The notes under the pieces: model-generated
The model's input: the letters and a program-made list of their open reading frames with translations, nothing else
The model's database searches: none
Told to the model about the DNA's origin: nothing
Assembly: GCA_963578725.1 (NCBI GenBank)
Contig: CAUZDS010000008.1
Coordinates: forward strand, 6,409 to 70,408
Direction of reading: 5' to 3'
Length of the DNA: 64,000 nt
Origin: Vicinamibacteria bacterium
Lineage (GTDB): Bacteria; Acidobacteriota; Vicinamibacteria; Vicinamibacterales; UBA8438
Program-made: the position numbers and the translations under genes
Shown here: positions 11,510 to 63,280 of the stretch, in pieces
Numbering within the stretch: the first letter of the stretch is position 1
Layout of the letters: every line of letters starts with the position of its first letter

Positions 11510-11531
<22 letters not shown>

Positions 11532-13495: not shown

Positions 13496-13644
13496 GCTTC
13501 CTCCGTCTGTGGATCAGACTGCTGACACGCTCGAGTCGAGGTCAGTCGAAATCGTTCAAAGGCCAACTTCGCGGACGATCTCATACAGCGCAAGGGGCCG
13601 GGATTCGGTCTTCTGTGCCAAGAACGCCCGTCGTCAGACAAGTC

Positions 13645-16212: not shown

Positions 16213-16215
16213 TCG

Positions 16216-17745: not shown

Positions 17746-17763
17746 CTCCTGTCTCCTTCGTCC

Positions 17764-20700
17764 ATGTACATCGAGCTGCACACATCGTCCGCTTTTTCTT
17801 TCCTTGACGGGGCGTCCTTACCCGAGGCCCTGGTCGATCGGGCGGCCGAGCTGGGATATCCAGCGCTCGCCTTGCTCGATCGGGACGGGGTGTATGGCGC
17901 TCCTCGATTCCACAAGGCGGCGCTGGCGGCCGGCATCAAACCGATTGTCGGCTGCGAGCTGACGATCGCTAAAGGCTGGGGGGCGGCCTGCTGGCGTCTG
18001 CCGGTGCTAGTCGAATCATCGGAGGGATATAGGAATCTGTGCCGGTTATTGACCCGTATGAAGCTTGAGGTGCCCAAGGGCGAAGGGGTCCTGACCCTGG
18101 ACGATCTTGAAGGGTTTACCACCGGGCTGGTGGCGCTCGCCGGGCGCGCGGCGCTCATGGGGCACCGCTACGGGGTCGGTGGGCTGCTCGATCGGCTCGT
18201 CGGGTTGTTTGGCCGGTCGCAGGTCTTTGTCGAACTGCAGCGACATCTGCTGCGGGACGAGGAGATCGACAACCAGGCGCTGATCGCGCTGGCAGCCGCC
18301 TATCATGTCCCGCTCGTGGCGACCAACGGTGTGCGGTTCGCCGTCGCCGAGGACCGCCCGCTGTATGACGTGCAGACCTGTTTGCGACACAAGACTACCC
18401 TCGACCGGGCCGGTCACCGTCTGGCTCGCAATGCCGAGCGGTATCTGAAGTCGCCCGTCGAGATGACCCGGCTGTTTTACGACCGGCCGGACGCACTGGC
18501 AGCCGCCGGCGAACTGGCCGATCGGGTGGGCTACACGATGGCCGACTTGGGTTATCGGTTTCCCGCCTATCCGGTGCCGGCCGGCGAGACGATGGTCTCT
18601 TTTCTGCGCGCCATCACCGAGGTAGGTGCCCGTGAACGCTATCGCCCGTATCACGACCGTGCCCGGCGGCAGATCGCGCGCGAGCTCGATCTCATCGAGC
18701 AGCTCGACCTGGCCGGGTATTTCCTAATCGTCTGGGACCTCGTGAACTTCTGCCGGCAGCAGGACATCCTCGTGCAGGGACGCGGCTCGGCCGCCAACAG
18801 CGCCGTCTGCTACAGCCTAGGGATCACCGCGGTCGATCCGGTCGGGATGGATCTGCTCTTCGAGCGCTTTCTGTCCGAGGAGCGGGGTGAGTGGCCCGAT
18901 ATCGATCTGGACCTGCCGAGCGGCGACCGCCGCGAACGGGTCATCCAGTATGTCTACGAACGGTATGGTCGGTTGGGCGCTGGGATGACCGCCAACGTCA
19001 TCACCTACCGCGGTCGCAGCGCCGCGCGCGAGGTCGGCAAGGCGCTATCGATCCCCGCCGACCAGATCGACCGACTTGCCAAGATCCTGAACCACTTCGA
19101 GTGGACCGACCCGGCGGACACTCTCGCGCGCCAGCTCGACGGCGTCGGCATCGACCGGACCGACTCGCGGGTCAGTCAATTCAGCGCGCTGTGGCGACGT
19201 ATGCAGGACCTGCCTCGTCATCTCGGCCAGCACTCCGGCGGGATGGTGATCTGCCAGGGGCGGCTCGACGAGGTGGTGCCGCTCGAGAACGCCAGCATGC
19301 CGGGTCGTGTCGTCGTGCAATGGGATAAGGAGGACTGCGCCGACATGGGGATCGTGAAGGTCGATCTGCTCGGGCTAGGGATGATGGCGGTCCTGCAGGA
19401 TACCTTCACGCTGATTAAAGGGGCGCGCGCGGATCGGACGGACGCGGTCGATCTCGCCCGGTTGCCGCCGGACGACCCGGCGGTCTACCGGATGTTGCAG
19501 CGCGCCGACACGATCGGGGTGTTTCAGGTCGAGTCCCGTGCTCAGATGGCGGCGTTGCCGCGTCTGCGGCCCGAACGGTTCTACGACATCGTCGTCGAGG
19601 TGGCGATCATCCGTCCCGGCCCGATCGTGGGCCAGATGGTGCACCCCTACATGGAGCGGCGCGCGGGGCGCGAGCCGGTGCAGTATCCGCACCCCGCGCT
19701 CGAGCCGATCTTACGTCGCACCCTCGGGGTGCCGCTGTTCCAGGAGCAGTTGCTCCGTGTCGCGATGGTCGCGGCCGGGTTCTCGGGCGGGCAGGCCGAA
19801 GAGCTCCGGCGCGCCTTCGGCTTCAAACGGTCGGAGCGGCGGATGGCGGAGATCGAGGTGGCGCTGCGCGAAGGGATGGCCGGACGGGGTATCACGGGAG
19901 AACCAGCCGATCAGATCGTGCAGTCGATCACAGCCTTTGCGCTGTATGGCTTCCCCGAGTCCCACGCCGCGAGCTTCGCGTTGCTGGTCTATGCCAGCGC
20001 CTATCTGAAGGCGCACTACCCGGCGGCGTTCTACACGGCGTTGCTGAACAACCAGCCGATGGGGTTCTATCATCCGGCCACCCTGGTCAAGGACGCCCAG
20101 CGGCGTGGTGTGCGGTTCGCCCGGATCGACGTGCAGCACTCCGGCTGGCAGTGCCGGGTAGAGCCCGATGGCGCGATCAGGCTCGGGCTGCGCTATGTGA
20201 CCGGTCTGCGTGAGGCGCCGGGTCGTGCGATCGAGGGAGTCGGTGTCCGTCCCCCGGCCGGCTCTGATCGAGACACGCCCGCGTCAAGTCGCAGGGTCGC
20301 CGATCGTCGCTCGCTGGTGTGTCCCAAATGCGGGTGCGACGACCCCTCGATGGTCGAGGTCGTGGACCCGGCGACCTCGCACGCCAGGGGGTTTTGCCGC
20401 ACCTGCGCGGCCGACTGGCTGCTGACGACGGAACGGGACGACGAGACCGTAGATGCGGCAAGATCACGATTCACGTCGGTCGAGGATCTGATCGCCCGGA
20501 CCGGGCTGCGCCGCGGCGAGCTGGCAACCCTGGCAGAGATCGGCGCGCTCAACTCGTTCGGATATGACCGTCGGACGGCGCTCTGGCAGATCGAGCGCGC
20601 GGTGAGAACGCCTGGGGAGCTGTTCAAGGAGACAGTCAATCTTCGCCAATCGCTGCCGAGACCCAGGCGGTCAGCAGGCTACGTCGGACCTGCCGAAGCT

Positions 20701-21165
20701 CACCGTTCGATCACGTCGGCGAGCGAAAGCGGGTCGCCACTGGCACCGATGACGCCGGATGAACGTGTAGTCGCCGACTATGCCGGCACGGGATTGACGA
20801 TCGGGCCGCATCCGGTCGCGTTTCGGCGTCAGGAGCTGGCGTTGCGGGGAGTGTTGCGCGCGATCGACCTGCCGCGGGCGCGCAATGGCCGGCGGGTGCG
20901 TGTGGCGGGCACCGTCATCACGCGCCAGCGTCCTGGGACCGCCAAGGGATTCGTGTTTCTGACGCTGGAAGACGAAACTGGTGTCGCCAACGTCATCGTC
21001 CGGCCCGACGTGTTCGCAGCCGATCGGGTCACGATTCTCGACCGGCCGTTTTTGCTGGTGGAGGGGGTGCTCCAGCTGCAGGATGGCGTCACCTCCGTCA
21101 AGGCGGAGTGTTTTCACGACTTCGCCTTCGGCGAGGCGACACCCGAGTCGCGCAATTTCTGCTGA
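17764..21165 (+). CDS. dnaE2: error-prone DNA polymerase III alpha-like subunit DnaE2 (ImuC)
   Basis: 1133 aa. The PHP N-terminus is MYIELHTSSAFSFLDGASLPEALVDRAAELGYPALALLDRDGVYGAPRF. The polymerase core is GRGSAANSAVCYSLGIT...IDLDL. An OB fold lies at the C-terminus. Confidence 0.95.
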   Translation: MYIELHTSSAFSFLDGASLPEALVDRAAELGYPALALLDRDGVYGAPRFHKAALAAGIKPIVGCELTIAKGWGAACWRLPVLVESSEGYRNLCRLLTRMKLEVPKGEGVLTLDDLEGFTTGLVALAGRAALMGHRYGVGGLLDRLVGLFGRSQVFVELQRHLLRDEEIDNQALIALAAAYHVPLVATNGVRFAVAEDRPLYDVQTCLRHKTTLDRAGHRLARNAERYLKSPVEMTRLFYDRPDALAAAGELADRVGYTMADLGYRFPAYPVPAGETMVSFLRAITEVGARERYRPYHDRARRQIARELDLIEQLDLAGYFLIVWDLVNFCRQQDILVQGRGSAANSAVCYSLGITAVDPVGMDLLFERFLSEERGEWPDIDLDLPSGDRRERVIQYVYERYGRLGAGMTANVITYRGRSAAREVGKALSIPADQIDRLAKILNHFEWTDPADTLARQLDGVGIDRTDSRVSQFSALWRRMQDLPRHLGQHSGGMVICQGRLDEVVPLENASMPGRVVVQWDKEDCADMGIVKVDLLGLGMMAVLQDTFTLIKGARADRTDAVDLARLPPDDPAVYRMLQRADTIGVFQVESRAQMAALPRLRPERFYDIVVEVAIIRPGPIVGQMVHPYMERRAGREPVQYPHPALEPILRRTLGVPLFQEQLLRVAMVAAGFSGGQAEELRRAFGFKRSERRMAEIEVALREGMAGRGITGEPADQIVQSITAFALYGFPESHAASFALLVYASAYLKAHYPAAFYTALLNNQPMGFYHPATLVKDAQRRGVRFARIDVQHSGWQCRVEPDGAIRLGLRYVTGLREAPGRAIEGVGVRPPAGSDRDTPASSRRVADRRSLVCPKCGCDDPSMVEVVDPATSHARGFCRTCAADWLLTTERDDETVDAARSRFTSVEDLIARTGLRRGELATLAEIGALNSFGYDRRTALWQIERAVRTPGELFKETVNLRQSLPRPRRSAGYVGPAEAHRSITSASESGSPLAPMTPDERVVADYAGTGLTIGPHPVAFRRQELALRGVLRAIDLPRARNGRRVRVAGTVITRQRPGTAKGFVFLTLEDETGVANVIVRPDVFAADRVTILDRPFLLVEGVLQLQDGVTSVKAECFHDFAFGEATPESRNFC

Positions 21166-23322: not shown

Positions 23323-24012
23323 TTACATTCGGAACTGGGCTGCTGCTACAAGCGGGGTGTTGAGAAATCGGATGAACGGTTCCAGCGCGGTGAAGCGTCG
23401 CAGAAGGGTGCCGTAGAACCTTGGACTGAGGGCCAGCGCCGGGTCCAGCGCCTCGCCGGCCAGATATTGGTTGAGCTTGAGATACGTCGCCGCTTCGTGG
23501 TCCGGTGGGAACCCGCGTGGCACTCGCTTCAGCGTCGTGCCGGTCACACCACCGAGACGCCGGAAGACTGGCGACTCCACCAGGCTGCGGAAACTGCGGA
23601 GATTGGCGACGATGTGCTTGCGGATCCACTGTAGCTGCGGCCTCTGTGGAGCGTACAGACCGCCACCGATCCAGAGTTGGTTGTGGGCCAGATGGACATA
23701 GAGTCCGGCACTCTCGTTCTTGGGCAACGCCCGGTGCGAGAACCTGGCCGCGACGTGTGTCTTATAGGGGGTCTTGTCTGGCGAAAACCGCGTGTCACGA
23801 TATATCCGGTAAAGGGAGCGCGGCGAGGCCACCAGGTCCGGGGCGATCCCCGGGAAGTCCTCGGCCAGCCTCTCGATGGTTGCCAGCATCGGCCCGCGGA
23901 CGTGGGTCTCGTAGTCGCTCTTGTGCGCGCTGAACCACTCCCGGTTGTTGTTGCGCTTGAGGGCCCGCAGAAATGTGAGCGTACGTGGGTTGAACCGCGG
24001 CGGGGGACTCAT
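23323..24012 (-). CDS. DUF2461 (TIGR02453) family protein
   Basis: 229 aa. FLRALKRNNNREWFSAHKSDYETHVRGPM...YRIYRDTRFSPDKTPYKTHVAARF is the family signature. Confidence 0.85.
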   Translation of the reverse strand: MSPPPRFNPRTLTFLRALKRNNNREWFSAHKSDYETHVRGPMLATIERLAEDFPGIAPDLVASPRSLYRIYRDTRFSPDKTPYKTHVAARFSHRALPKNESAGLYVHLAHNQLWIGGGLYAPQRPQLQWIRKHIVANLRSFRSLVESPVFRRLGGVTGTTLKRVPRGFPPDHEAATYLKLNQYLAGEALDPALALSPRFYGTLLRRFTALEPFIRFLNTPLVAAAQFRM

Positions 24013-24063
24013 GGCGTGAGTATACCCAACGGCGTAGGAGCTTCGGCCCGGGCGTGTGGAGCG

Positions 24064-24462
24064 TCAGCCCGTGTCGCGGTCGACCCACCGGACCCGAGGC
24101 GCTAGTGCCCAGTTGAACTCGTCGAGCCGGTCCGGCCCCAGACGCTCCACCTCCACCAAGATTCGGGCGGCCTGAGCCAGCAGATCGGCCACGTCGACGC
24201 ACTGACAGGCAGGTGCGAACGGGCGCAGATAGGTCGAGCCTCGGGTCAGCATGTAGACCGCTCCGTGATGGTTGCGCCGCTGCACGTGATGGAGCGCGAC
24301 CCCGATCTGCAGGATGCCTTGATAGAGCGCGCGGACCGGTCGCGGTTCGTCGCGCCACAGGTCTTCGAGGGTTTCGTGTTGGTCGAAGAACTCGCGTCGG
24401 TTGAATTGTTCGACCCCCTGCCGCAACAGGCGCGGAGGTGACTCATCGCACGGCTTAGACAC
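24064..24462 (-). CDS. DUF309 domain-containing protein
   Basis: 132 aa with a GTG start. GVEQFNRREFFDQHETLEDLWRDE...YQGILQIGVALHHVQRRNHHGA has the DUF309 pattern. Confidence 0.8.
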   Translation of the reverse strand: MSKPCDESPPRLLRQGVEQFNRREFFDQHETLEDLWRDEPRPVRALYQGILQIGVALHHVQRRNHHGAVYMLTRGSTYLRPFAPACQCVDVADLLAQAARILVEVERLGPDRLDEFNWALAPRVRWVDRDTG

Positions 24463-24883
24463 GGTCGTGATTCTACTCGTGGCCCGAGTTGAACACTTGC
24501 TTTGCCACGGCTCGGGTGATGCAGGACCGCGGGGCGACCGCGATGGGTCCGGAATCCCGGCGTGCTGGTATCATGCGCTGTCTGGGTCGTTGGAGTGTGG
24601 GCCCGCGCCGCGGCGGTCGTGGTCGCGGCCGCCGTCAAGGGGATCGTCTCCGACGACAGTGATCATGACCGATTGTCCGCACGGTGGCCAGGCCGAGGCC
24701 GGTCAGATAACGAGGTTGAGCGTCCCGTGTCAGACGTTCGTGATCTGATGCCCGGGTGGGGTGTTCTGCCTGACGGCGTTGCTCCGCAGTCACACATGTC
24801 CGATTTGTCCCTTCGTCGCGTCTCGCTAGGCAGGCGCCGCGCCTCGGGTTTCGGTCAGCCAGCGTCTGGCACGGGATACTAGA

Positions 24884-25297
24884 GTGGCTCAGATATACCT
24901 GCCGAAGATCAAGCGGAAGCGGTCCAAGTTGCACGGCTGGGGGGTATTCGCCCTCGAGGACCTCAACAAGAACAAGCGGGTCGTTACCTACGACGGCGAG
25001 AAGATCACCGCCAAGGAGAGCGCGGATCGCGAAGACCGGTACCTCCGTCGAGGCGAGATCTGGTGTTTCCGGTTGAACCGGCGCTGGGTCATTGACGCCA
25101 ACGTCGGCGGTAACATCGGGCGGTTCATCAATCATTCGTGCATGCCCAATTGCTACAGCAACGTGATCGACGGCGTTATCTGGATTATCGCCGGCCGCAA
25201 GGTGAAGCGTGGGCAGGAGCTCACCTACAACTACTTCACCGACGGCGACAAGGAGATCCCGTGCTGTTGTCGCCCGGGGTGCACGCATAGACTTTGA
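24884..25297 (+). CDS. SET-domain protein-lysine N-methyltransferase
   Basis: 137 aa with a GTG start. It has the pre-SET basic tail KIKRKRSK, then GWGVFALEDLNKNKRVVTYDGEKI, GRFINHSCMPNC, ELTYNY and the post-SET Cys cluster CCCRPGC. GC3 is about 84%, which looks native. Confidence 0.85.
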   Translation: MAQIYLPKIKRKRSKLHGWGVFALEDLNKNKRVVTYDGEKITAKESADREDRYLRRGEIWCFRLNRRWVIDANVGGNIGRFINHSCMPNCYSNVIDGVIWIIAGRKVKRGQELTYNYFTDGDKEIPCCCRPGCTHRL

Positions 25298-25463
25298 GTG
25301 ACTTTGAGAAGACAGGCGGGAGCTCGTCTTCGCCTAGGCCACGGCGGGCTAGCTGGACGCGCCGTCCAAGTGCCGGCACACGCAGGCGGGGCAGCGAGAC
25401 GGGGGTTCGGAGACAGTACACCCTGACGTCTGAAAGCCGAAGCTCCGAACCTACTATTCGATC

Positions 25464-26156
25464 ATGCAGGTCGTCTACCTCCATGGGTTCGCGTCGTCTC
25501 CAGCATCGTCGAAGGCACTGTTCCTGGGCGAGCGTCTGGCGGCGTGCGGCCTCACCTTGCAGTGTCCCGACCTTAACGCCCCAGATTTCTCCACGCTGAC
25601 TGTCTCGCGCATGGTCGCGCAGGTCGAGCACCTGATCCAGGGGCTCGCGCATGGGCCGGTCGCGCTGATCGGGTCGAGCCTGGGGGCGTTCGTCGCCGTG
25701 CAGGCCGCAGAGCGGAGCTGGCGTGCTGGCAGGTCCGCCGTTGGTGCGGCCGGCGCCGACCACCCGATCGCGTGGCTGGTGCTGCTGGCGCCGGCGCTCG
25801 ACTTCGGCGCCAACCGTATAAAAAACCTTGGGCCAGAGGGGCTCGCGCGCTGGCGCGCGAGCAACCGGCTGGAAGTGGAGCACTACGCTGAGGGGCGGGT
25901 CCGCCACGTGCACTACGAGTTGTATGAAGATGCCAGCCGGTACGACAGCTTCGCGGCCACGGCGGCGTTGCCGACGCTGATCCTCCAGGGTCGCCGAGAC
26001 GAGGTGGTCGATCCGGCGATGGTCGAGCGATACGCGCGCGACCGGCGCCACGTCACGCTGGTCCTGCTCGATGACGACCATCAGCTGAAGGCGAGTCTGG
26101 AGCAGGTCTGGCGTCAGACGGCCGGCTTTCTCGCGGTGACATCGTCGGCCGATTGA
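25464..26156 (+). CDS. YqiA-like alpha/beta-hydrolase (esterase)
   Basis: 230 aa. The N-terminus is MQVVYLHGFASSPASSKA. The nucleophile elbow is GSSLGA. The C-terminus has QGRRDEVV...DDDHQL. Confidence 0.75.
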   Translation: MQVVYLHGFASSPASSKALFLGERLAACGLTLQCPDLNAPDFSTLTVSRMVAQVEHLIQGLAHGPVALIGSSLGAFVAVQAAERSWRAGRSAVGAAGADHPIAWLVLLAPALDFGANRIKNLGPEGLARWRASNRLEVEHYAEGRVRHVHYELYEDASRYDSFAATAALPTLILQGRRDEVVDPAMVERYARDRRHVTLVLLDDDHQLKASLEQVWRQTAGFLAVTSSAD

Positions 26157-26193
26157 TCCCGTGTCGTGGCCGCCCTACGGCCCGCGGCAGTCC

Positions 26194-26204
26194 GGGGGGG
26201 GGGG
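26194..26204 (+). repeat. G11 homopolymer tract
   Basis: Eleven consecutive G, 55 nt upstream of the glycosyltransferase ATG at 26259. If the GTG at 26166 is the real start, the tract is inside the ORF. Confidence 0.9.
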
Positions 26205-26258
26205 CTGGCGCCGGTCGAGCACCGCGTGCGTGCTGACTCGGCACGAGGGTACAGGGCA

Positions 26259-26996
26259 ATGCGCAATCCCTTCGTCTCCGTGATCATTCCGGTTCTGCAC
26301 GACGCCGGACCGCTCGCCGAGCTGTTGGAGAGGTTGCATCCGACCGGCCGGGTCGAGGTGGTTGTCGCAAACGGCGATGCCGGGGACCCGGCGCTGGCCG
26401 CGGTTCGTCGGTTATGGCCAGCGGTCCAGTGGGTCGACAGTCCGCCTGGTCGCGGCCTCCAGATGAACGCCGGGGCGGCGCGCGCGGCGGGGCATTGGCT
26501 GCTGTTTCTGCATGCCGACGCACGGCTCGCCGACGGGTGGCTCGACGAGATCGGGCGAGCCGCCGCGGAGGGCGCCGTTGGCGGGTGCTATCGGCTCGAA
26601 ATCGACTCACCGCGCTGGCAGGCCCGGCTCATCGAGCGCGGGGTGCGCTGGCGGGTGTTCTGGCTTGGGCTGGCCTACGGTGACCAGGGGCTGTTCATCC
26701 GGCGCGATCTGTTTCACGCCATCGGTTGCTACCGGCTGATACCGGTGATGGAGGACGCGGACCTGGTGCGCCGGATGCGGCGTCACGGACGGTTTCGCCG
26801 GTCGGCCGTCGGCGTGTGCGTGTCAGCGAGACGCTGGGAGCGGGATGGCTGGGTCCGTCGTACCGCCTTGAACCTCTGGATCCTGCTGTTCTATCTGGCC
26901 GGCCGGCTGGGGTTGTTGTATCCAGTCTGGCAGGACCCGGTGGCGACCGTGTCCGAGTCCGGAAACCGGTCCGTCCCGCCGGCCGGACAGACCTGA
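26259..26996 (+). CDS. family-2 glycosyltransferase, TIGR04283-like (rSAM/selenodomain-associated, arsenosugar-type GT)
   Basis: The ATG at 26259 follows a GAGGG. The motif series is VSVIIPVL, GRGLQMNAGA, LLFLHADARL, AYGDQGLFIRR, PVMEDADLVRRMRR, SARRWERDGWVRRTALN. Confidence 0.8.
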   Translation: MRNPFVSVIIPVLHDAGPLAELLERLHPTGRVEVVVANGDAGDPALAAVRRLWPAVQWVDSPPGRGLQMNAGAARAAGHWLLFLHADARLADGWLDEIGRAAAEGAVGGCYRLEIDSPRWQARLIERGVRWRVFWLGLAYGDQGLFIRRDLFHAIGCYRLIPVMEDADLVRRMRRHGRFRRSAVGVCVSARRWERDGWVRRTALNLWILLFYLAGRLGLLYPVWQDPVATVSESGNRSVPPAGQT

Positions 26997-27159
26997 ACCC
27001 GAGACACGGCGGACGTTCGGTGTCGCGTATGGCGCGGGCACTGCCGGGCCCGTGCCGCTGACATCCCGTTGACAAGGTGCACGGTGCGGGAGGACCATGG
27101 CCCGGGGGAGGTGTATCTTTATTTCGCCCTTCCGCCGGCACATCGATTGGAGGCACCGA

Positions 27160-28119
27160 ATGTTGATCAAGCAGGCTCCAGACATCCGATCGTCGGAGAT
27201 TACCGACGAGCGGCTGTATCGCAACCGGCGGCAGTTCATCCAGACGGCCTCGGGTGCCATGGCCGGCGCCCTGGCCGGCGTGACCGTACTCGGTCGGTAC
27301 GGCGGCGTGGTGCAGGCGCAAGAGACGATTCCGAATCTGCGGCCGTCGCCGTTGAGCACCGACGAGAGCCCCAACTCGTACGAAGACATCACCAGCTACA
27401 ACAACTTCTACGAGTTCGGGTCGGACAAGGGTGACCCGGCACGCTACGCGGAGGAGATGACGATCGACCCCTGGTCGGTGCGGGTCGAGGGGCAGATGAA
27501 TACCCAGGCCGCCGACGTGGACATCGATGACCTCCTCCGTCCCCACACGCTCGAAGAGCGCGTCTATCGGCTGCGGTGCGTCGAGGCCTGGTCGATGGTC
27601 GTGCCGTGGGTCGGATTTCCGCTGGGCGACCTGATCAAGCGATTCGAGCCAACTTCGAGGGCCAATTTCGTGAAGTTCACGACGCTGTTGCGCCCCGACG
27701 AGATGCGGGGACAGCGGAGCCCGGTGTTGCGGTGGCCGTATGTCGAGGGGCTGCGTCTGGACGAGGCGATGCATCCGCTGACAATCCTGGCGGTCGGCGT
27801 GTACGGGAAGACCTTACTGAATCAGCAAGGCCCGCCGCTGCGTCTCGTCGTACCATGGAAATACGGGTTCAAGAGCATCAAGTCCATCGTTAAGATCGAG
27901 TTCGTCGAGGACCAGCCACGGAACTCCTGGAATATTTCCGCCCCGAACGAATACGGGTTCTATTCCAACGTGAATCCAGAGGTCAACCATCCCCGGTGGA
28001 GTCAGGCCAGCGAGCGCCGGATCGGCAAGTTCTTCCGGATCCGGACGCAGATGTTCAACGGCTACGCCGACCAGGTGGCGAGCCTCTACGATGGGATGGA
28101 CCTTCAGCGGGACTTCTGA
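27160..28119 (+). CDS. msrP: protein-methionine-sulfoxide reductase catalytic subunit MsrP (YedY)
   Basis: The ATG at 27160 follows a GGAGG. It has a Tat-like [14 protein letters not shown]...[17 protein letters not shown]...[15 protein letters not shown]...[14 protein letters not shown]...HPRWSQA is near-collinear with E. coli YedY. Confidence 0.95.
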
Positions 28120-28130
28120 GTACGAGGGGG

Positions 28131-28736
28131 ATGGGGGTGCGCCGTGTCAAGCCGTGGGTGTTCGCGGCGTGCCTCATCCCGCTCGGTCTTCTCGTCTGGC
28201 GGGGCGCCACCAATGGTCTCACGGCCAACCCGATCGAGTTCATCACCCACAGGACCGGCGACTGGACGCTGCGTTTTCTGCTGATCACCCTCGCAATCAC
28301 CCCGCTGCGAAGGGTGACCGCGTGGAGCAGCCTGGTACAGCTCCGACGGATGCTGGGACTGTTTGCCTTTTTCTACGCGGTGCTCCACTTCGGCACCTAT
28401 CTGGTGTTGGACTTCTTTTTCGCGTTCGACCTGATCCTCGATGACGTCGTGGAGCGCCGGTACGTCACCGCCGGGTTCACCGGGTTCGTGTTGCTGATTC
28501 CGCTGGCTGTCACTTCGACCCAGCGGATGATCCGCCGACTTGGCGGCGCGCGCTGGCGGCGGCTCCACCGTCTCGTGTATGGTGCCGCGCTGGCGGGGGT
28601 CGTGCACTATTTTTGGTTGGTCAAGGTCGACATCCGGCCGCCCCTGATGTACGCCATGATCCTGGGCCTGTTGCTCGGGGCGCGCGTGTGGTTCTGGTTG
28701 TCAAAAAAGGGCTCCGGAGTCTTGTCGCGAGCCTAG
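28131..28736 (+). CDS. msrQ: protein-methionine-sulfoxide reductase heme-binding subunit MsrQ (YedZ)
   Basis: ATG at 28131. KPWVFAACLIPLGLLVW...NPIEFITHRTGDWTLRFLLITLAITPLRR...FYAVLHF. Six TM segments, directly after msrP. Confidence 0.9.
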   Translation: MGVRRVKPWVFAACLIPLGLLVWRGATNGLTANPIEFITHRTGDWTLRFLLITLAITPLRRVTAWSSLVQLRRMLGLFAFFYAVLHFGTYLVLDFFFAFDLILDDVVERRYVTAGFTGFVLLIPLAVTSTQRMIRRLGGARWRRLHRLVYGAALAGVVHYFWLVKVDIRPPLMYAMILGLLLGARVWFWLSKKGSGVLSRA

Positions 28737-28835
28737 GGCCCGTGGTGAAACACCGGGTTACACTGAGACCGGCGATGTACCCAGTTCGTAACTGGATTCG
28801 TCGAGCGATACGCGACGTCTTATCGAGGCAGTCCT
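28734..28835 (+). repeat. stop-adjacent structured repeat, short copy C
   Basis: The sequence begins TAGGGCCCGTGGTGAAACACCGGG...GAGACCGGCGATG. It shares the 5' module and the GACCGGCG block with copies A and B. It contains the hairpins CCAGTT-cgt-AACTGG and CGTCG-n9-CGACG, and ends GAGGCAGTCCT directly before the ATG at 28836. Confidence 0.4.
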
Positions 28836-31400
28836 ATGCCACTGCACATTGAAGATGCGACCGTGCTTCGTGCCCCGGCCTGCTCCGTGCGGCAGGTGGC
28901 GGGTGGCGCCGTCACGCTCGACCCGGCGAAACCGCACTGGATCGGCACCGACGAGCGCGGGTTCCGGCTGCTCGGCCGCTTCGACGGTCGGACCGTGTTC
29001 GCACAGGTGGTGCGGGACTATGCCACCGAGTCCGGACTCGACGTCGCCCGTGCCTGGCTCCACGTCGAGACGTTCGCGCATGACGGACTCCGGCACGGTT
29101 TTCTGTCGACGGATGGGGCGGCGCCGGCACCGTATCTCGGCCGGTCGGCGTATCTGGACACGGAACGGTTGCACGAGCTGTGGATCCAGATTAACGACTT
29201 CTGTAACCTCAGCTGCGGCCATTGCTTGGTGTCATCGGGGCCCGATCGTTCACAGGGACTGCCGACCGAACGGATCACCGCCGCGATTGATCAGGCGGTC
29301 GGGCTAGGAGCCGAACGGCTCTTCTTCACTGGTGGCGAGCCGCTGGCCCGGCCGGACCTGCTCGATCTCGCGGAACGTGTCGTGGGGACCCACGGTCGTG
29401 AGCTGGTCATTCTCACCAACGGCACGCTCTTCCAGCGCGAGCGCCTGGAGCGCCTGGCCCAGCTGGCCACGACGGCGGAGGCTCGGACCGTTCCGTCTGC
29501 CGCGGGCCAAGCGGGCGGGCGCGGCGTCGCAGCTGCGCGGAGTCGAGGGGGGCTTCGGCTTCAGATCAGCCTCGACGGCCCGACCGCCGCGGTTAACGAC
29601 CCGATCCGCGGGGAGGGGACGTTCGATCGCATTCTGGGCGGGCTGGACCGCGCCGTTGAGGCCGGGTTGCGGCCGACGCTGACCGCCACGATCTTGCGCC
29701 ATAATCTCCAGTCGCTTGACGAGATCGTCTGCCTGGCGGCGGCGCACGGCGTGCGCAATGTCCATCTACTCTGGCCTCACCGCCGGGGCCGTGTGCTCGA
29801 TGGGGCGCTCGGCGACTTACCGAGTGCCCAGGAGATTCTTGCCGCGGTGCGCCGGGCGCGCGCGGTGGCGACCGAGCTCGGGGTTTGGATCGACAACATC
29901 GAGGAGTTCCGGTTGCGCCTCGACGGTACCCCGGGCGTGAAGAACGACCTGTCCGGCGCCGGTTGGAGCAGCTTGTGTCTCTACACCGACGGGTGCGTGT
30001 ATCCGTCGGCCTCGCTGGCGGGGATACCCGAGCTGCGCTGCGGCGATCTTGGGCAGCAGGATCTGGAGACCATCTGGAAGACGAGCGAGGTCTGTCGCGA
30101 CCTGCGTGAAGCCACCGTCGAACAGAAGCCGATCTGCCGCTCGTGCAACCTCAGGTTTCTGTGCGGCGGCGGCGACGTGGAGCACGCGTACTGGCCGGCG
30201 GCCGCCGCCGGACAGGACCGGCGATCCGCCTTCGTGGCGCATGATCCGTATTGCGAGCTTTACGAAGGGCTGGCGGACGATACGTTTGCGGATCTGCTGC
30301 GGGAGGGGCGGGCGACGGCCCAGCCGCGTTCCGGCTACGACCGGCCGGTGGTCATTCGTGGCATGGGCGAGCAGACGTTGCACGACGAGGACGCGATTGT
30401 TCGCACGACGCACTCGGCCTGCGTTCTCTCCGAGGAGGTGCTCGATCGGTCGCGACTGACGGTGCGCGAGTTCTATGGTGAGGCGGCCGAGCAGCCACAG
30501 GCCGAGCTCTGCTGTCCGGTGCAACCGGACGCCGCGGACCTCGATCATATTCCTAAAGCGGTCGTGGAGCGATTCTACGGATGCGGTAGTCCCGTGACGG
30601 CGGCATCGCTCGTGGCAGGGGAATCGCTGGTGGACCTTGGTTCAGGCGCCGGTATCGACTGCTTCATCGCCGCGAAGCTAGTGGGTGCCGAGGGGCGGGT
30701 CTACGGTGTCGACATGACAGACCAGATGCTGTCGGTCGCCCGCGAATGCCAGTCAGAGGTGGCCGCCGCGCTCGGCTACGATGCGGTGGAGTTCCGCAAG
30801 GGCTACCTGGAGGAGATTCCGGTCGACGACACGAGCGTCGACGTCGTGACCTCGAACTGCGTCATCAATCTGTCACCGGACAAGCCGCGTGTTTTCAGAG
30901 AGATCTGGCGGGTGTTGAAGGACCACGGACGGCTGGTCGTGGCCGACATCGTGTCCGACCGTGAGGTGCCACCACGCATGCGTGCCGACGGACGGCTCTG
31001 GGGCGAGTGCATCTCGGGCGCGTTGACCGAGGAGGCGTTTCTCGCCGGGCTCGAGAAAGCGGGGTTCTACGGGGTCTCGGTCCTCAAGAAGACGTTCTGG
31101 CGCGAGGTTGAGGGCTGCCGGTTCGACTCGGTGACTGTCCAGGGCTACAAGTTCGAGAAGAAAGCGGGCTGCCGATTTGTCGGGCAGTATGCTGTCTATC
31201 TTGGTCCGCAGAAGGCGGTGGTCGACGAAGAGGGCCATCTGTTCCCGCGCGGCCAGGCGGTCGAGGTTTGCACCGACACCGCCGCCAAGCTGTCGCACGC
31301 TCCGTATGCCTGCGCTTTCACTATCGTTGATGGTCCCCACGGCGCCGGTGATGTTACCGCCGGTGACGACGACCCTGACTGCGGCCCCTGCTGCTGCTAG
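28836..31400 (+). CDS. PqqD/RRE-like + radical SAM/SPASM + ArsM-type SAM-dependent arsenite methyltransferase fusion protein
   Basis: 854-aa ORF. A PqqD-like segment covers about aa 30-95. The radical-SAM motif CNLSCGHC lies at nt 29202-29225, followed by FFTGGEPL. The SPASM-like Cys cluster is CLYTDGC...CRSCNLRFLCGGG...HDPYC. ArsM-type motifs are ELCCP, FYGCGSP, LVDLGSGAGIDCF, SNCVINLSPDK and LWGECISGAL. The tail is DPDCGPCCC. Confidence 0.85.
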   Translation: MPLHIEDATVLRAPACSVRQVAGGAVTLDPAKPHWIGTDERGFRLLGRFDGRTVFAQVVRDYATESGLDVARAWLHVETFAHDGLRHGFLSTDGAAPAPYLGRSAYLDTERLHELWIQINDFCNLSCGHCLVSSGPDRSQGLPTERITAAIDQAVGLGAERLFFTGGEPLARPDLLDLAERVVGTHGRELVILTNGTLFQRERLERLAQLATTAEARTVPSAAGQAGGRGVAAARSRGGLRLQISLDGPTAAVNDPIRGEGTFDRILGGLDRAVEAGLRPTLTATILRHNLQSLDEIVCLAAAHGVRNVHLLWPHRRGRVLDGALGDLPSAQEILAAVRRARAVATELGVWIDNIEEFRLRLDGTPGVKNDLSGAGWSSLCLYTDGCVYPSASLAGIPELRCGDLGQQDLETIWKTSEVCRDLREATVEQKPICRSCNLRFLCGGGDVEHAYWPAAAAGQDRRSAFVAHDPYCELYEGLADDTFADLLREGRATAQPRSGYDRPVVIRGMGEQTLHDEDAIVRTTHSACVLSEEVLDRSRLTVREFYGEAAEQPQAELCCPVQPDAADLDHIPKAVVERFYGCGSPVTAASLVAGESLVDLGSGAGIDCFIAAKLVGAEGRVYGVDMTDQMLSVARECQSEVAAALGYDAVEFRKGYLEEIPVDDTSVDVVTSNCVINLSPDKPRVFREIWRVLKDHGRLVVADIVSDREVPPRMRADGRLWGECISGALTEEAFLAGLEKAGFYGVSVLKKTFWREVEGCRFDSVTVQGYKFEKKAGCRFVGQYAVYLGPQKAVVDEEGHLFPRGQAVEVCTDTAAKLSHAPYACAFTIVDGPHGAGDVTAGDDDPDCGPCCC

Positions 31401-31655
31401 CCGGTGCTACGGCGCTTCAGAATCTTAAAACTACCATCGTCGTCCCCATGACGCCGAGTGACGAAGCATCTTGGATAGCTGGGGACCGATATGATGGCCG
31501 ATGTGTTGCCAACGCTACACGAGGTGTTCGCGGCGTGGCAGCATGAACGGCCGGACAGATCGTCAGCACCGTAGTCCGGGGACATAATCAGGCGACGAGA
31601 TCGTGGAGCGGGTCCTCGACCCACAGGTCCGTGAACAGGCGGCGCCCCACCTAAG

Positions 31656-32804
31656 CTAGAAGACCTTGCGTTGTTGCGCAGTGCCGTGCGCGGCCAGCGT
31701 AAACCGCGCTTCAGGCGTCGCACGATCGGAAAGCTGCGCCGTGACGTACTCGCCGACGGCTGGGCCGTGCTTGAAGCCGTGTCCAGACCCGCCGCCCACC
31801 AGCCACACGTTGTCCATCTCCGGGTGTCGGTCGATAATGAAGTCACCGTTCGAGCTGTTCGAGTACTGGCAGACGTGCGCTTCGAGCAGTGGCGCGGCGT
31901 CGAGGGCGGGGACGCGGCGGGTGAGGATCATGCGCGCGACCTCGAGAGCGCCGTCCGAAACGCGCCGCTCGCCGAGATCGGGGTCGAATGGTGGTCCGTG
32001 GTGGTCGAGACCCACCTTGAAGCCGCGCCCTTCCAGGTCCGGGACTCCATAGACGCCACCAGCGAAGTCGACCCACGCCGGCATCGCCGGGGGCGCGAAC
32101 CGCCGGTCGCCGGGCGCGGAGCCGAAGAAGAATACCTCCTGACGTGTTGGATGAATCCGGTCACCGAGCGTGGCGGGAAACAACGTGGGTAGCCACGGGC
32201 CGCAGGCGAAGACAAACGTGCCGGCTGTGATCCGGTCGCCGTCACTCGTGCGCACCGACTCGAGGTGTTCGGTGTCTGCCGGCGGGGTCACTGCTGTGAT
32301 GCGGTAGTCGACGCTCTGCCTGACCGCCTGACGCACGACCGCCTGCACGGCGCGCCGGGCCATGATGACACCCGCTTCGGACTCGAGCACGCCGCGCGTG
32401 ACGGGACCGAAGCTGAGCTGCGGATATCGCCGCTCGAGCTCGGCCCGGTCGAGGATCTCGAACGGCACGCGGAGTCGGCGCAGCGTATCCACGGTCTCAT
32501 CGGTCATCGGGTCGTCCGATCGGGTCATCCACAGGACGCCGGTCTGCGTGAAGAGCTCCAGACGTCCGTCCCGGAAGAGCTCTAGCCACGCGGTCAACGA
32601 GCGTTGCGCCCAGCGCGAGTAGAGCGCGTCGTGGCCGTATCCGATGCGGAAGACGCGGGAGATGCCACCGGAACTGGACCGGGTGTTGCCGGCACCGAAC
32701 GCGTCGACCAGCGTCACCGATCGTCCGCTCCGGCGGAGCTGAAGGGCCGTCCAGGCGCCGAAGACACCGGCGCCGATCACGGCAACATCGGAGACATGAG
32801 ACAT
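31656..32804 (-). CDS. FAD-dependent oxidoreductase (DAO / sarcosine-oxidase-like family)
   Basis: The ATG at 32804 gives MSHVSDVAVIGAGVFGAWTALQLRRSGRSVTLVDA (GxGxxG). The protein runs about 382 aa, with GGSGHGFKHGP near the C-terminus. Confidence 0.85.
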   Translation of the reverse strand: MSHVSDVAVIGAGVFGAWTALQLRRSGRSVTLVDAFGAGNTRSSSGGISRVFRIGYGHDALYSRWAQRSLTAWLELFRDGRLELFTQTGVLWMTRSDDPMTDETVDTLRRLRVPFEILDRAELERRYPQLSFGPVTRGVLESEAGVIMARRAVQAVVRQAVRQSVDYRITAVTPPADTEHLESVRTSDGDRITAGTFVFACGPWLPTLFPATLGDRIHPTRQEVFFFGSAPGDRRFAPPAMPAWVDFAGGVYGVPDLEGRGFKVGLDHHGPPFDPDLGERRVSDGALEVARMILTRRVPALDAAPLLEAHVCQYSNSSNGDFIIDRHPEMDNVWLVGGGSGHGFKHGPAVGEYVTAQLSDRATPEARFTLAAHGTAQQRKVF

Positions 32805-32842
32805 TGATTCGAAACCGGAATGGAACGTGTAGAGTAGCACCA

Positions 32843-33481
32843 ATGTCCGCACGCCGTATCGAGGTCTGTCCGGATGCTGTGCACCTGCCGGCGTACCTCA
32901 CGCTCGATGCGCAACGGGCGCTCGCCGAGCGCTGCCGGTCGATCGGCATGAGTCCGACGGGCTGGTATGTCCCGACGGTGCGTGGAGGCGGTCGGATGCG
33001 CGTGCGGATGGTCTGTTTAGGGCGGCACTGGAATGCCCGGACATACCGCTACGAGGCGGTGCGCAGCGACTACGATGGCCTCCCGGCTCCGGCGCTGCCG
33101 GCCGACCTGGCCGTGCTCGCGTCTCGGCTCGCGGCGGACGCCGGGATGCGTCTGACCCCGGACGTCTGCATTCTCAACCACTACAATCTGGACGGGAAGA
33201 TGGGGCTGCACCAGGACAAGGACGAGGATCCAGACACGCTGGAAAGCGGGGTTCCGATCGTATCGGTGTCCATTGGGGACACGGCGAAGTTCATCCTGGG
33301 CGGCCGTACGCGTCGCGACACCAGGACGACGGTGCTCCTGGCGTCTGGTGATGGGTTCGTCTTCGGTGGGCGGAGTCGTTTGCGTTACCACGGTGTCGCG
33401 GCACTGCTGCCCGGTACCGCCCCCCCGGAACTTGGGCTCGAGGGCCGGTTCAACCTCACGTTTCGGCAGGGCGCGGTCTAG
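32843..33481 (+). CDS. alkB: Fe(II)/2-oxoglutarate-dependent dioxygenase AlkB
   Basis: The ATG at 32843 starts a product containing ILNHYNLDGKMGLHQDKDE...PIVSVSIGDTAKF...RLRYHGV...RFNLTFRQ. The HxD...H facial triad and the RxNxTxR motif are present. Confidence 0.9.
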   Translation: MSARRIEVCPDAVHLPAYLTLDAQRALAERCRSIGMSPTGWYVPTVRGGGRMRVRMVCLGRHWNARTYRYEAVRSDYDGLPAPALPADLAVLASRLAADAGMRLTPDVCILNHYNLDGKMGLHQDKDEDPDTLESGVPIVSVSIGDTAKFILGGRTRRDTRTTVLLASGDGFVFGGRSRLRYHGVAALLPGTAPPELGLEGRFNLTFRQGAV

Positions 33482-33631
33482 CAGCCCGAGGTGAAAGTCC
33501 CGCTGCAGTCGACCGGCCCTGTATACCGGCTGGCGGCGTTGCCGCTCGGTCGAATACCGCCGGTATGCTCCCTCGCCGTGCTTTGCCAGCCAGGAGCGCG
33601 GTTTTGGTTCGCGGGGTCGCCTGAGGCTCGA
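33479..33631 (+). repeat. stop-adjacent structured repeat, copy A (about 150 nt)
   Basis: It starts at the alkB TAG. Thirty-four of its first 40 nt are identical to copy B. The long-range stems are 33483-33491/33620-33628 and 33498-33503/33611-33616. The internal hairpins are 33527-33544 and 33554-33566. Confidence 0.6.
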
Positions 33632-33675
33632 CGCGTGCGCCGTGCGGTTGGGTGTCCGCTACGCAACAGGGGCCG

Positions 33676-34707
33676 CTACCCGCCGCGGGTGTGCATCTCG
33701 AGGTGTGGCTCGTTCTGGAGTTTCTCGACCGGGATCAGCGCCGACCGGTCCGCCGACGACAGCCGTGTCTCCGCGCCGCGGTCGTCTCGCGCCTGCCATG
33801 TCGAACCGATGAGGTCGCGCAGCTCCTCCGCACCGATACCGGCCCGAAGCAGTTCGCGCAGGTCCGTGCCAGTCGGGGCGTAGAGGCAGCGATACCAAAG
33901 CCCGTCGGCGGTGAGTCGGCTGCGGTCGCATCGCCGGCAGAATGGTTCGGTCGTCGAAGAGATGATGCCGAACACGGTGCCGTCCGGAAGCGTGAACCGA
34001 TTGGCCGGGGCGTTGCTATCTTCGACCACCGCTGCGATCGGGCCGAAATGGGCAGACAGTCGTCGCAGCATCTCCTGACGTGAGACGACGTCCCGCATCG
34101 ACCAGCGTGTCGCGCCGCCCACATCCATATACTCGATGAACCGAACCTCGATGCCAAGCCGGCGGCCGAGATCGAGCATTGGTGCCAGCTCATCGTCGTT
34201 CACCGACCGAATCACCACCGTGTCCACCTTGACGCTGTCGAACCCGGCCTCGGTCGCTCGGTCCAGGCCGCGCAGTACCGCGTCGAGGCTATCGAAGCGG
34301 GTCAAAGCCTTGAAGCGGTCGGCGTGCAAGGTGTCGAGGCTTACCGTGATGCGTGGTAGCCCGGCGGATCTGAGCGCCTCTACCTGGGCGGCCAGCAGCA
34401 TGCCGTTGGTGGTCAGCGCCAGGTCTTTGAGCGCCGCCTTCCCCGCCAGCAGCGCGATGAGGTCCGGGAGGTCCTTGCGCAGCAGCGGTTCGCCGCCGGT
34501 GATCCGGATCTTGTCGACCCCAACGGCAGTGAAGATGTCGACAAGGGTGTCGATCTCCTCGAAGGTCAGGATGTCGGCGCGCGGGAGCCAGACATAGTCC
34601 TTCTCTGGCATGCAGTACTGACAGCGCAGGTTGCAGCGGTCGGTTACGGACAGGCGCAGGCTCGTCAGCGCCCGGCCAAGCTGGTCCAGCACCTCCATGG
34701 TATCCAT
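33676..34707 (-). CDS. moaA: GTP 3',8-cyclase MoaA (radical SAM, molybdenum cofactor biosynthesis)
   Basis: 343 aa. LRLSVTDRCNLRCQYCMP...IRITGGEPLLR... plus the C-terminal CRRCDRSRLTADG cluster. Confidence 0.95.
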   Translation of the reverse strand: MDTMEVLDQLGRALTSLRLSVTDRCNLRCQYCMPEKDYVWLPRADILTFEEIDTLVDIFTAVGVDKIRITGGEPLLRKDLPDLIALLAGKAALKDLALTTNGMLLAAQVEALRSAGLPRITVSLDTLHADRFKALTRFDSLDAVLRGLDRATEAGFDSVKVDTVVIRSVNDDELAPMLDLGRRLGIEVRFIEYMDVGGATRWSMRDVVSRQEMLRRLSAHFGPIAAVVEDSNAPANRFTLPDGTVFGIISSTTEPFCRRCDRSRLTADGLWYRCLYAPTGTDLRELLRAGIGAEELRDLIGSTWQARDDRGAETRLSSADRSALIPVEKLQNEPHLEMHTRGG

Positions 34708-48304: not shown

Positions 48305-48358
48305 CGGTGTGGGCCCGATCGGGTGCCAGACGGCGCGGGCGGGAAGGCACGGGACGGC

Positions 48359-60645: not shown

Positions 60646-60927
60646 CGCATGTCGTTGGCCGGCCGCTTTCCGCGGGACGGCTTACCCGCGCGCAACCGGA
60701 GACCGCGGACGCCGCAGGCGCTCGTTCCGGGTCTCTGGAATCAGGCGATGCCACGGTCTGGGCGGTCTTGGCGCTGGCGGTAGGCGTCGCCATTCCACCC
60801 CTGCCCCCCGGTCCCCCAGCTCCCGTACCCTCCGAGTCATCGCGTGGCGGGAACCGGCATGGTACGATCGCCGGTCGCGTGCCGGCCAGTGAGTCGTCGG
60901 TGCGTGTTGTCTGCAAGGAGCACCACC

Positions 60928-62931
<2,004 letters not shown>

Positions 62932-62986: not shown

Positions 62987-63280
62987 ATGATGAAAGATCA
63001 CGATGGACACGCTGGCGCGGTCCTGATGGCATTCGTGCTGGGCGCCGTGAGCGGTGCCGCGGTGGCGCTGCTGTGGGCGCCGACCGCCGGTGACGAGGCG
63101 CGACGGGTGCTCAACGAGAAGGCGAGCGAGGGTCGTGGCCGGGCCACTGACGCGGCTCGAGTGGGCCGGGAGTTCGTGAGCCAGCAGCGAGACAACCTCG
63201 CGACCGCGATCGACGAGGGACGGGAAGCCTATGAGCGCGCGCGGAACAAACGCAAGGACTCGACCGAGGCCCCGGCATGA
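62987..63280 (+). CDS. YtxH-domain protein
   Basis: The ATG at 62987 follows a GGAG. AVLMAFVLGAVSGAAVALLWAPTAGDEARRVLNEKA has the YtxH pattern. Confidence 0.7.
   Translation: MMKDHDGHAGAVLMAFVLGAVSGAAVALLWAPTAGDEARRVLNEKASEGRGRATDAARVGREFVSQQRDNLATAIDEGREAYERARNKRKDSTEAPA

Follow-up and report, generated by a model that had tools for sequence, protein, structure and literature searches.

Arsenosugars and arsenolipids are major environmental arsenic species, and to our knowledge ArsS, which has been studied mainly in cyanobacteria, is the only enzyme so far known to start their synthesis. A 64-kb stretch of a Vicinamibacteria genome (contig CAUZDS010000008.1, positions 6,409 to 70,408; hereafter, the window) raises the question of whether this step can be taken without ArsS. 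It encodes a glycosyltransferase of TIGR04283, a family annotated for arsenosugar biosynthesis, and, downstream on the same strand, an 854-residue protein in which a radical S-adenosylmethionine (SAM) domain is fused to an ArsM-type As(III) methyltransferase (hereafter, the fusion). A preliminary description of this DNA had proposed a variant organoarsenical pathway in which an unrelated radical-SAM domain replaces ArsS. From the comparisons reported here, we put at about 0.5 the probability that the fusion takes over the tasks of both ArsM and ArsS in an alternative, arsenosugar-like pathway together with TIGR04283. The fusion family is widespread and unnamed, and would be a candidate third route to organoarsenic compounds. 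If this is true, hundreds of species from soils, groundwater and marine anaerobic lineages have a fused radical-SAM/ArsM enzyme in this gene system, organoarsenical synthesis extends to abundant uncultured phyla, and a new C–As bond-forming catalyst is to be added to those known.

The C-terminal half of the fusion is ArsM, as judged by motif and structural-homology tests. Solved arsenite methyltransferases align with it over all three domains (5evj, E = 1.4e-41, query 37–332 on chain 21–341; 4fr0, E = 2.7e-39), and the SAM-binding motif DLGSGAG is conserved. Cys559/560, C583 (YGCGSP), C675 (SNCVINL) and C725 (WGECISGA), which we take to be the As(III)-binding positions of CmArsM, are conserved in all 76 full-length family members, drawn from about nine phyla, that formed our conservation set. 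The profile NF008823 gave 237.9 bits over positions 39–235 of 272, a near miss of its cutoff of 263 by a domain that is embedded in a fusion. The protein ends in a cysteine-rich tail, DCGPCCC, in which C853 and C854 are 99–100% conserved and C849 is 80% conserved; this tail may bind arsenic.

The radical-SAM half, in turn, is not ArsS, because it fails both the ArsS hidden Markov model (HMM) and the domain tests. TIGR04167 reached 49.2 bits against a cutoff of 300 and matched the generic core only (query residues 108–221), whereas genuine ArsS proteins from metagenomes scored 355–457 bits; Pfam assigned a SPASM domain, not the ArsS-type C-terminal Cys-rich DUF3641. The preliminary description was thus right to call this half unrelated to ArsS. 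The CNLSCGHC motif (residues 123–130, nt 29202–29225) supplies C123, C127 and C130, each kept in 76 of 76 members. The highest NCBIfam scores of the half were those of MftC (110 bits), ScmF (104) and AhbD (100), all below cutoff, and no NCBIfam model reached its cutoff on the entire fusion. Its homologues are publicly named 'methyltransferase domain-containing protein' or 'radical SAM protein with 4Fe4S-binding SPASM domain', and we found no description of a radical SAM/SPASM–ArsM fusion in the literature covered, which excluded subscription-only papers.

Between the two catalytic domains, the SPASM-like region of the window copy carries Cys381, 402, 420, 434, 437, 443 and 473. Over the 76 members, C381 is conserved in 95%, C402, C434, C437 and C443 in 68–70%, C473 in 58% and C420 in 33%; where the cysteines at 434, 437, 443 and 473 are replaced (about 30% of members), the residues are L/A, D, T and Y. 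A family-specific motif, GGGDxEH (residues 444–450), is at least 97% conserved, and its Asp447 stands in place of the fourth Cys of CX2CX5CX3C in at least 97% of members. At the N-terminus lies a PqqD-like domain that the preliminary description had overlooked, as it had the wider set of accessory genes described below. PF05402 matched 16 of 28 diverse family members (best E = 2e-7), and the window copy gave 13.8 bits, under the cutoff of 23.4. The AlphaFold2 model, made from a 14-sequence alignment, was poor (mean predicted local distance difference test score, pLDDT, 53.8; below 50 in the ArsM half). Its use was limited to the secondary-structure pattern of the N-terminus, a strand-rich start followed by helices (pLDDT 61–85), and no inter-domain geometry was drawn from it.

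By its domain make-up the fusion is one branch of a larger, unexplored radical-SAM group. Relatives of the radical-SAM half include proteins of about 1,000–1,080 residues that combine radical SAM with an ArsM-like Methyltransf_31 and DUF5714 (P0259, P0280, P0284 and P0276), proteins of about 715–755 residues with PqqD, radical SAM, SPASM and Methyltransf_11 (P0257 and P0264, the PqqD domain of P0257 passing the Pfam cutoff), and stand-alone PqqD–radical SAM–SPASM proteins of about 450–520 residues.

The glycosyltransferase is, by profile and alignment, a genuine, ordinary and already annotated member of TIGR04283. It scored 213.0 bits (E = 3.9e-63; profile positions 1–211 of 221) against a cutoff of 182, and only 36.8 bits with the generic family 2 glycosyltransferase (GT2) model of Pfam, PF00535. 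The six motifs quoted in support of this assignment are all present, in the order given, in the translation from either 26166 or 26259 to 26996. Public data already hold an identical 245-residue protein (P0121; start ATG at 26259), and NCBI labels close homologues 'TIGR04283 family arsenosugar biosynthesis glycosyltransferase [Vicinamibacterales]'. An alignment of 15 sequences (A2; relatives at 32–78% identity) has 30 invariant columns, and the glycosyltransferase keeps every one of them. The C-terminal motif G-R-SP-D-RLA-x-x-Y (A2 columns ~235–245) carries a four-residue deletion and reads YLAG----RLGLLY, and the invariants of the catalytic region are intact despite it. The 102 bp that separate the yqiA stop from the glycosyltransferase ATG contain a run of 11 G (26194–26204), which would be coding if translation began at the upstream GTG (26166) and which is a possible hotspot of slippage or assembly error.

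Six genes, SET, yqiA-like, glycosyltransferase, msrP, msrQ and fusion, follow one another on the plus strand between 24.9 and 31.4 kb (Table 1). The co-orientation that had been noted for the last five is correct, and the spacing given as 1.8 kb measures 1,839 bp from the glycosyltransferase stop (26996) to the fusion start (28836). The reported lack of ArsS and of TIGR04282/DUF2064 also holds for the 64 kb, in which a six-frame scan and HMMs built from verified sequences found neither. The only open reading frames (ORFs) of at least 200 residues with a CxxxCxxC motif in that scan were the fusion and MoaA; the SPASM-type domain joined to ArsM is indeed the only radical-SAM domain near the glycosyltransferase. 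Pfam models of ArsR, ArsC, Acr3 and ArsB matched none of 38 further ORFs, a scan that excluded small ORFs and the intervals 48305–51262, 60784–62931 and 63235–63705.

The association of the two genes was then considered at the level of the family. Fusion homologues numbered 442 at E ≤ 1e-10, and at least 547 fusion loci in about nine phyla were confirmed when each GTDB species was scanned through one genome. Gene context was counted in 80 of these loci, each about 20 kb long, for neighbours within 10 kb of the fusion: the ORFs were clustered, the recurrent ones annotated and their numbers obtained with non-iterated seed HMMs. Iterated local HMMs were discarded because of drift: by way of fused proteins they no longer kept TIGR04283 and TIGR04282 apart. 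The 80 loci belong to Vicinamibacterales and other Acidobacteriota, Nitrospirota, Scalindua/Brocadiales and other Planctomycetota, Elusimicrobiota, Omnitrophota, Wallbacteria, Dadabacteria, Thermodesulfobacteriota, Latescibacterota, Spirochaetia, Armatimonadetes and Gemmatimonadaceae.

TIGR04283, TIGR04282 or both occurred within 10 kb of the fusion in 32 of the 80 loci, 20 of them outside Acidobacteria, and a true ArsS in none. The order and orientation of these genes relative to the fusion vary between phyla, and some are single TIGR04282–TIGR04283 fusion proteins. All eight distant examples that were scored exceed the curated cutoffs, with 222 bits or more where the cutoff is 182 and 195 or more where it is 134. 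If a genome is assumed to carry one or two such genes, an arbitrary gene would have one of them within 10 kb with a probability well below 1%, a rough estimate rather than a computed control. The co-occurrence across genomes that the preliminary description had anticipated is thus seen at the family level, with the fusion recurrently beside TIGR04283 or TIGR04282 in about nine phyla and never beside ArsS.

The commonest neighbour of the fusion was a PiT/PHO4 transporter (26 loci; same strand in 25 of the 26 and within 300 bp in 14). It was followed by TIGR04283 (21 loci), TIGR04282/DUF2064 (20, of which 11 were within 300 bp, the listed examples beginning 0–80 bp after the fusion stop), a TlpA/ResA-like thioredoxin (19), DedA/VTT (18), a MerA-like flavoprotein disulfide reductase of the PRK06370 type (17), DUF547 (16), a GT87/MptA-like glycosyltransferase (15), DUF3179 (11) and a CelA-like GT2 (10). 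Extracytoplasmic function (ECF) sigma and anti-sigma factors, Crp and CcdA/DsbD_TM also recurred. At least one of the glycosyltransferase, TIGR04282, MerA-like, VTT and DUF547 genes was present in 50 loci. The other radical-SAM genes at these loci were MoaA, Tes-like proteins and one B12-type enzyme, with no others.

The reciprocal view came from a metagenome scan with a TIGR04283 alignment, which yielded 80 diverse loci at 33–56% identity to the window glycosyltransferase, many on contigs too short to show a partner. The radical-SAM partner was ArsS in 10 loci, an Rv1681-like enzyme in six and the fusion in two (L083 and L132); no locus held two of these types together, and none of the 10 ArsS loci contained the fusion. 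TIGR04283 and TIGR04282 partner, then, with at least three different radical-SAM enzymes. The surroundings of the glycosyltransferase repeatedly include TIGR04282, MerA-like, VTT and DUF547 genes, also at several loci of the ArsS and Rv1681 types. L132 is a compact operon of glycosyltransferase, fusion, TIGR04282 and PHO4; in this sample PiT/PHO4 stood beside the fusion only, and at none of the ArsS loci. In a rough neighbour-joining tree of the glycosyltransferase domains, which carries no support values, the fusion-linked domains fell into at least six separate branches interleaved with ArsS-linked ones. Such a pattern would be expected if the fusion had displaced ArsS (plus ArsM) non-orthologously within one gene system, and it supports that view. 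The accessory genes common to ArsS-type and fusion-type clusters (TIGR04282, MerA-like, DedA/VTT and DUF547) likewise speak for the fusion as a stand-in for ArsS plus ArsM.

The same counts bear on the alternative that the real partner of the glycosyltransferase is a canonical arsS in another part of the genome, alone or together with arsM and TIGR04282, and that the fusion is an additional arsenic enzyme. Such an arrangement would fit the fact that 64 kb of the genome are visible, that TIGR04282 is missing from the window though it stands beside TIGR04283 in many other loci, and that ArsS was the commonest identified partner in the metagenome sample. The finding that ArsS and the fusion never share a locus, in either sample, suggests that they are alternatives rather than co-residents, and we regard this possibility as very unlikely.

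The Rv1681-like enzyme, of about 340 residues, is encoded directly upstream of TIGR04283 in all six of its loci. Its best matches are all sub-cutoff, namely 85–88 bits to the Rv1681 family and 51 bits to ArsS. MerA-like and VTT genes are adjacent in three of the six loci, and TIGR04282 in four.

Several observations weigh against the reading that the fusion replaces ArsS plus ArsM, and the first of them concern the lineage of the window itself. The nearest public relatives of the window are metagenome-assembled genomes of Vicinamibacterales (Acidobacteriota). Nearest to it among the genome loci is L001, whose fusion is 82% identical and whose gene order, SET-yqiA-glycosyltransferase-msrP-msrQ-fusion, matches that of the window. 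Six further relatives (L002–L006 and L023; fusion 76–81% identical) read yqiA-msrP-msrQ-fusion, with no glycosyltransferase or remnant of one within 10 kb. Conversely, three syntenic loci keep the glycosyltransferase without the fusion: L081 (yqiA-glycosyltransferase-MptA_B-Tes-like radical SAM), L082 (glycosyltransferase-msrP-msrQ-DAO-AlkB-Tes-like) and L084 (tandem glycosyltransferase-GT87-DUF547). The two genes are therefore separable in the gene order of the window, since sister genomes show either of them alone. In the closest clade the link is a weak and loose one, with the glycosyltransferase in an old synteny block and the fusion coming and going. Gaps of about 100–160 bp separate the cluster genes in the window, and a scan for consensus promoters and terminators returned nothing intergenic, terminator-like matches being below shuffle expectation.

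These data suit the alternative that adjacency in the window is inherited synteny and not a pathway. An old block of DUF2461, DUF309, (SET), yqiA, glycosyltransferase, GT87/MptA-like and Tes-like radical-SAM genes would serve an envelope glycan or lipid function, and the fusion, separately gained and lost, would work by itself, for instance to methylate or detoxify arsenic with an additional radical step. Loci with one gene and not the other, the intergenic gaps and the position of msrPQ between the glycosyltransferase and the fusion are all in its favour. However, the fusion repeatedly adjoins TIGR04283 or TIGR04282 in about eight other phyla, in varied orders and orientations and beside fused genes, and such an association is not explained by shared ancestry of one synteny block. 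In addition, for many close metagenomic homologues of the glycosyltransferase (at least 73% identity) the longest contig has the same length as that of fusion homologues, so that both probably lie on the same contigs. We consider inherited synteny unlikely. For the replacement of ArsS by the fused domain, as first proposed, the association at the family level speaks in favour, but the separability of the two genes in the window's own order speaks against; the proposal is partly supported, strongly for the family and weakly for an obligatory coupling in this lineage.

The genes that surround the pair in the window also reflect lineage. The yqiA-like gene is a lineage-specific syntenic neighbour of the glycosyltransferase, found beside it only in loci of the Vicinamibacterales type (15 of the 80 fusion loci, and L081). 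Likewise, msrPQ occurred in eight of the 80 fusion loci, all in the subclade of the window, and in L082 without the fusion. Because the pair is confined to this subclade and is present there whether or not the glycosyltransferase or the fusion accompanies it, it is most likely a lineage-specific insertion and no part of the system, as the preliminary description had allowed. In more distant Vicinamibacterales (L007 and L009–L014), the order is yqiA-glycosyltransferase-GT87-fusion, without msrPQ. The cluster of the window is a reduced, eroded version of the family arrangement, with msrPQ inserted and with TIGR04282, PiT/PHO4, DedA/VTT and DUF547 missing from the window.

A second group of adverse observations concerns arsenic itself. 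The genes arsR, arsC and acr3 were not among the recurrent neighbours of the fusion in the 80 loci. ArsM was absent from all six Rv1681-like TIGR04283 loci, and the glycosyltransferase system may therefore not be specific to arsenic. The 'arsenosugar' label of TIGR04283 and TIGR04282 is a context-based annotation that calls for caution, and no experimental paper on either family was found in the literature covered, again with subscription-only papers excluded.

The remaining points arise from the fusion protein. Its PqqD-like domain and MftC-like similarity are typical of peptide-modifying enzymes, and several SPASM cysteines are absent in about 30% of family members. The PqqD-like domain raises the alternative that the fusion matures a peptide or protein by a logic like that of mycofactocin, in which an RRE/PqqD domain recruits a peptide, an MftC-like radical-SAM/SPASM domain modifies it, and the methyltransferase and an MftF-like glycosyltransferase tailor the product, arsenic being either not the substrate or carried on the peptide. 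The PqqD matches among family members, MftC as the best NCBIfam similarity of the radical-SAM half and the existence of stand-alone PqqD–radical SAM–SPASM relatives agree with this alternative, as does the glycosyltransferase, for which MftF is the second-best profile match and whose TIGR04283 model is itself named 'glyco_like_mftF'. A gene of the MNIO type (MbnB/TglH/ChrH family, PF05114), usually RiPP-modifying (that is, acting on peptides that the ribosome makes and that are modified after translation), stands within a few kilobases of the fusion in five loci (L015, L016, L025, L056 and L061) and has been counted on the same side. No conserved small ORF that might encode a precursor was found within 3 kb of the fusion in the 80 loci, where the recurrent small ORFs all looked like shadows of neighbouring genes, although very short or divergent peptides could escape such a search. 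Moreover, conservation reaches 100% for the As(III)-binding cysteines and for the complete ArsM fold of three domains, the SPASM cysteines that are lost in part of the family are normally needed by peptide maturases, and the similarity to MftC stays below cutoff throughout. A peptide-directed role appears to us distinctly improbable.

Among known systems, the fusion was compared with two arsenic pathways and with mycofactocin. With the set of ArsM and ArsS (TIGR04167) plus TIGR04282/TIGR04283, it has in common an ArsM-type methyltransferase, a radical-SAM enzyme and a TIGR04283 glycosyltransferase, and at the family level TIGR04282, MerA-like, DedA/VTT and DUF547 genes surround both types of cluster. 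Unlike ArsS, the radical-SAM part of the fusion is of the PqqD–radical SAM–SPASM type, lacks DUF3641 and is covalently joined to ArsM; a PiT transporter often adjoins the fusion and stood at none of the ArsS loci, and the window cluster is without TIGR04282. ArsS adds a 5'-deoxyadenosyl group to trivalent dimethylarsenic, DMAs(III), to give 5'-deoxy-5'-dimethylarsinoyladenosine, DDMAA (PMC13598754). In the arsinothricin pathway, too, a radical-SAM enzyme that forms a C–As bond, ArsL, is paired with ArsM. In the ArsL reaction an aminocarboxypropyl (ACP) radical is added to As(III) bound by a Cys tail at the C-terminus, RCCLKC, which resembles in kind the invariant terminal Cys-Cys of the fusion (PMC13598754). 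ArsL is a non-canonical radical-SAM enzyme whose model, NF040542, is not among the top matches listed for the fusion; in contrast to ArsL, the fusion has SPASM and PqqD-like domains, and its neighbours are glycosyltransferases instead of an arsQ permease. As for mycofactocin, a PqqD-like domain (as in MftB), an MftC-like radical-SAM/SPASM domain and an MftF-like GT2 likewise come together here, but the Mft scores fall far short of their cutoffs (265 and 280), the fusion has an ArsM domain joined on, and neither an MftA-like precursor nor MftD or MftE was found beside it.

If the fusion does replace ArsS plus ArsM, the reaction sequence might be as follows. The ArsM domain would bind As(III) on its invariant cysteines and methylate it with SAM, as expected from homology. 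The attached radical-SAM/SPASM domain would cleave a second SAM and place a carbon radical on the trivalent methylarsenical, so that a further As–C bond forms; this step is modelled on the displacement of ArsS in gene context, and the radical would be 5'-deoxyadenosyl if the chemistry is ArsS-like. More speculatively, the C-terminal Cys-Cys tail, and possibly the PqqD-like domain, could shuttle or position arsenic between the two active sites. TIGR04283, with a CofC-like TIGR04282 where present, might then process or transfer an arsenic-bearing ribosyl moiety, a role read from family context only, and the PiT transporter may bring arsenate in or carry an anionic product out.

A further-reaching version, which we offer tentatively and hold to be possible though doubtful, is that the fusion is a self-contained arsenic-alkylating enzyme, the third independently evolved radical-SAM solution to C–As bonds after ArsS and ArsL. 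As(III) would stay on the protein through its methylation and the radical alkylation that follows, perhaps bound to the Cys-Cys tail, for which the PqqD-like domain would serve as a dock, and together with TIGR04282/TIGR04283, PiT and envelope thiol-redox proteins the enzyme would give rise to an organoarsenical in Acidobacteriota, anammox Planctomycetota, Nitrospirota, Elusimicrobiota and other phyla.

Table 1. Coordinates of the genes and domains discussed. Positions without a locus name refer to the window.
Feature	Coordinates	Strand	Basis or remark
SET-domain protein, small bacterial	24884-25297	+	PF00856, 78 bits
YqiA/UPF0227-like alpha/beta hydrolase	25464-26156	+	PF05728, 70.1 bits
TIGR04283-family GT2 glycosyltransferase, 245 aa	26259-26996	+	TIGR04283 and PF00535 (scores in text)
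msrP	27157-28119	+	NF003767, 452.9 bits, cutoff 207
msrQ	28131-28736	+	NF003831, 174.1 bits, cutoff 130
Fusion, 854 aa: PqqD-like + radical SAM + SPASM + ArsM	28836-31400	+	domain profile matches
Fusion, PqqD-like (RRE-type) domain, residues 1-~100	28836-29135	+	PF05402 in relatives
Fusion, radical-SAM core, residues ~108-360	29157-29915	+	PF04055, 82.4 bits
Fusion, SPASM-like auxiliary-cluster domain, residues ~375-475	29958-30260	+	PF13186, 23.5 bits, cutoff 21.5
Fusion, ArsM-type As(III) SAM methyltransferase domain, residues ~541-837	30456-31346	+	solved-structure matches
Fusion, C-terminal cysteine tail	31371-31397	+	conservation over 76 members
MoaA	33676-34707		CxxxCxxC ORF
MerA-like flavoprotein disulfide reductase	11510-13513	-	PRK06370 type, 692 bits to seed HMM
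imuB-like (IMS_C) gene and dnaE2-like error-prone polymerase cassette	16213-21165	+
Tes-like radical SAM	L002:14718-16844; L081:12190-14292; L082:14869-16959
Rv1681-like radical-SAM enzyme	L099:6050-7066; L117:3705-4721; L121:2450-3493; L101:6902-7714		four of the six loci
Tandem GT2 with N-terminal TIGR04283 domain	L007:7217-8710
MNIO gene	L015:759-1784		PF05114

Some minor observations were made on the same loci. In L007, L009, L010, L013 and L014, the TIGR04283 domain forms the N-terminal half of a tandem GT2 of about 500 residues, which is followed by a GT87/MptA-like membrane glycosyltransferase and then by the fusion. The SET-domain gene is kept directly upstream of yqiA in several Vicinamibacterales loci. 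Downstream of the glycosyltransferase/fusion block, at a distance of 1–3 kb, 17 Vicinamibacterales loci encode a radical-SAM protein of about 700 residues that has an N-terminal zinc ribbon (PF23545) and is similar to the tetraether lipid synthase Tes, with 311 bits against a cutoff of 450. This Tes-like gene is missing from the window at 33481–33676, where AlkB is directly followed by MoaA.

Elsewhere in the window, whose G+C content is about 65%, the remaining annotated ORFs are housekeeping or unrelated genes, among them chromate and MFS transporters, an imuB/dnaE2 cassette, HisS, AspS, GlyQS, RecO, MutL and Era, and an Rfam scan of 24000–33000 gave nothing relevant. The MerA-like reductase of the window has an N-terminal DEP domain, adjoins an MFS_3 transporter and DUF983, and is of the same subfamily as the gene that abuts the fusion in other phyla; it was rejected as a part of the local cluster, being 15 kb away and on the opposite strand. 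The imuB/dnaE2 cassette lies inside the block MFS_3-DUF983-DUF2461-DUF309-glycosyltransferase and looks like an insertion, because this block is contiguous in the relatives L081 and L082.

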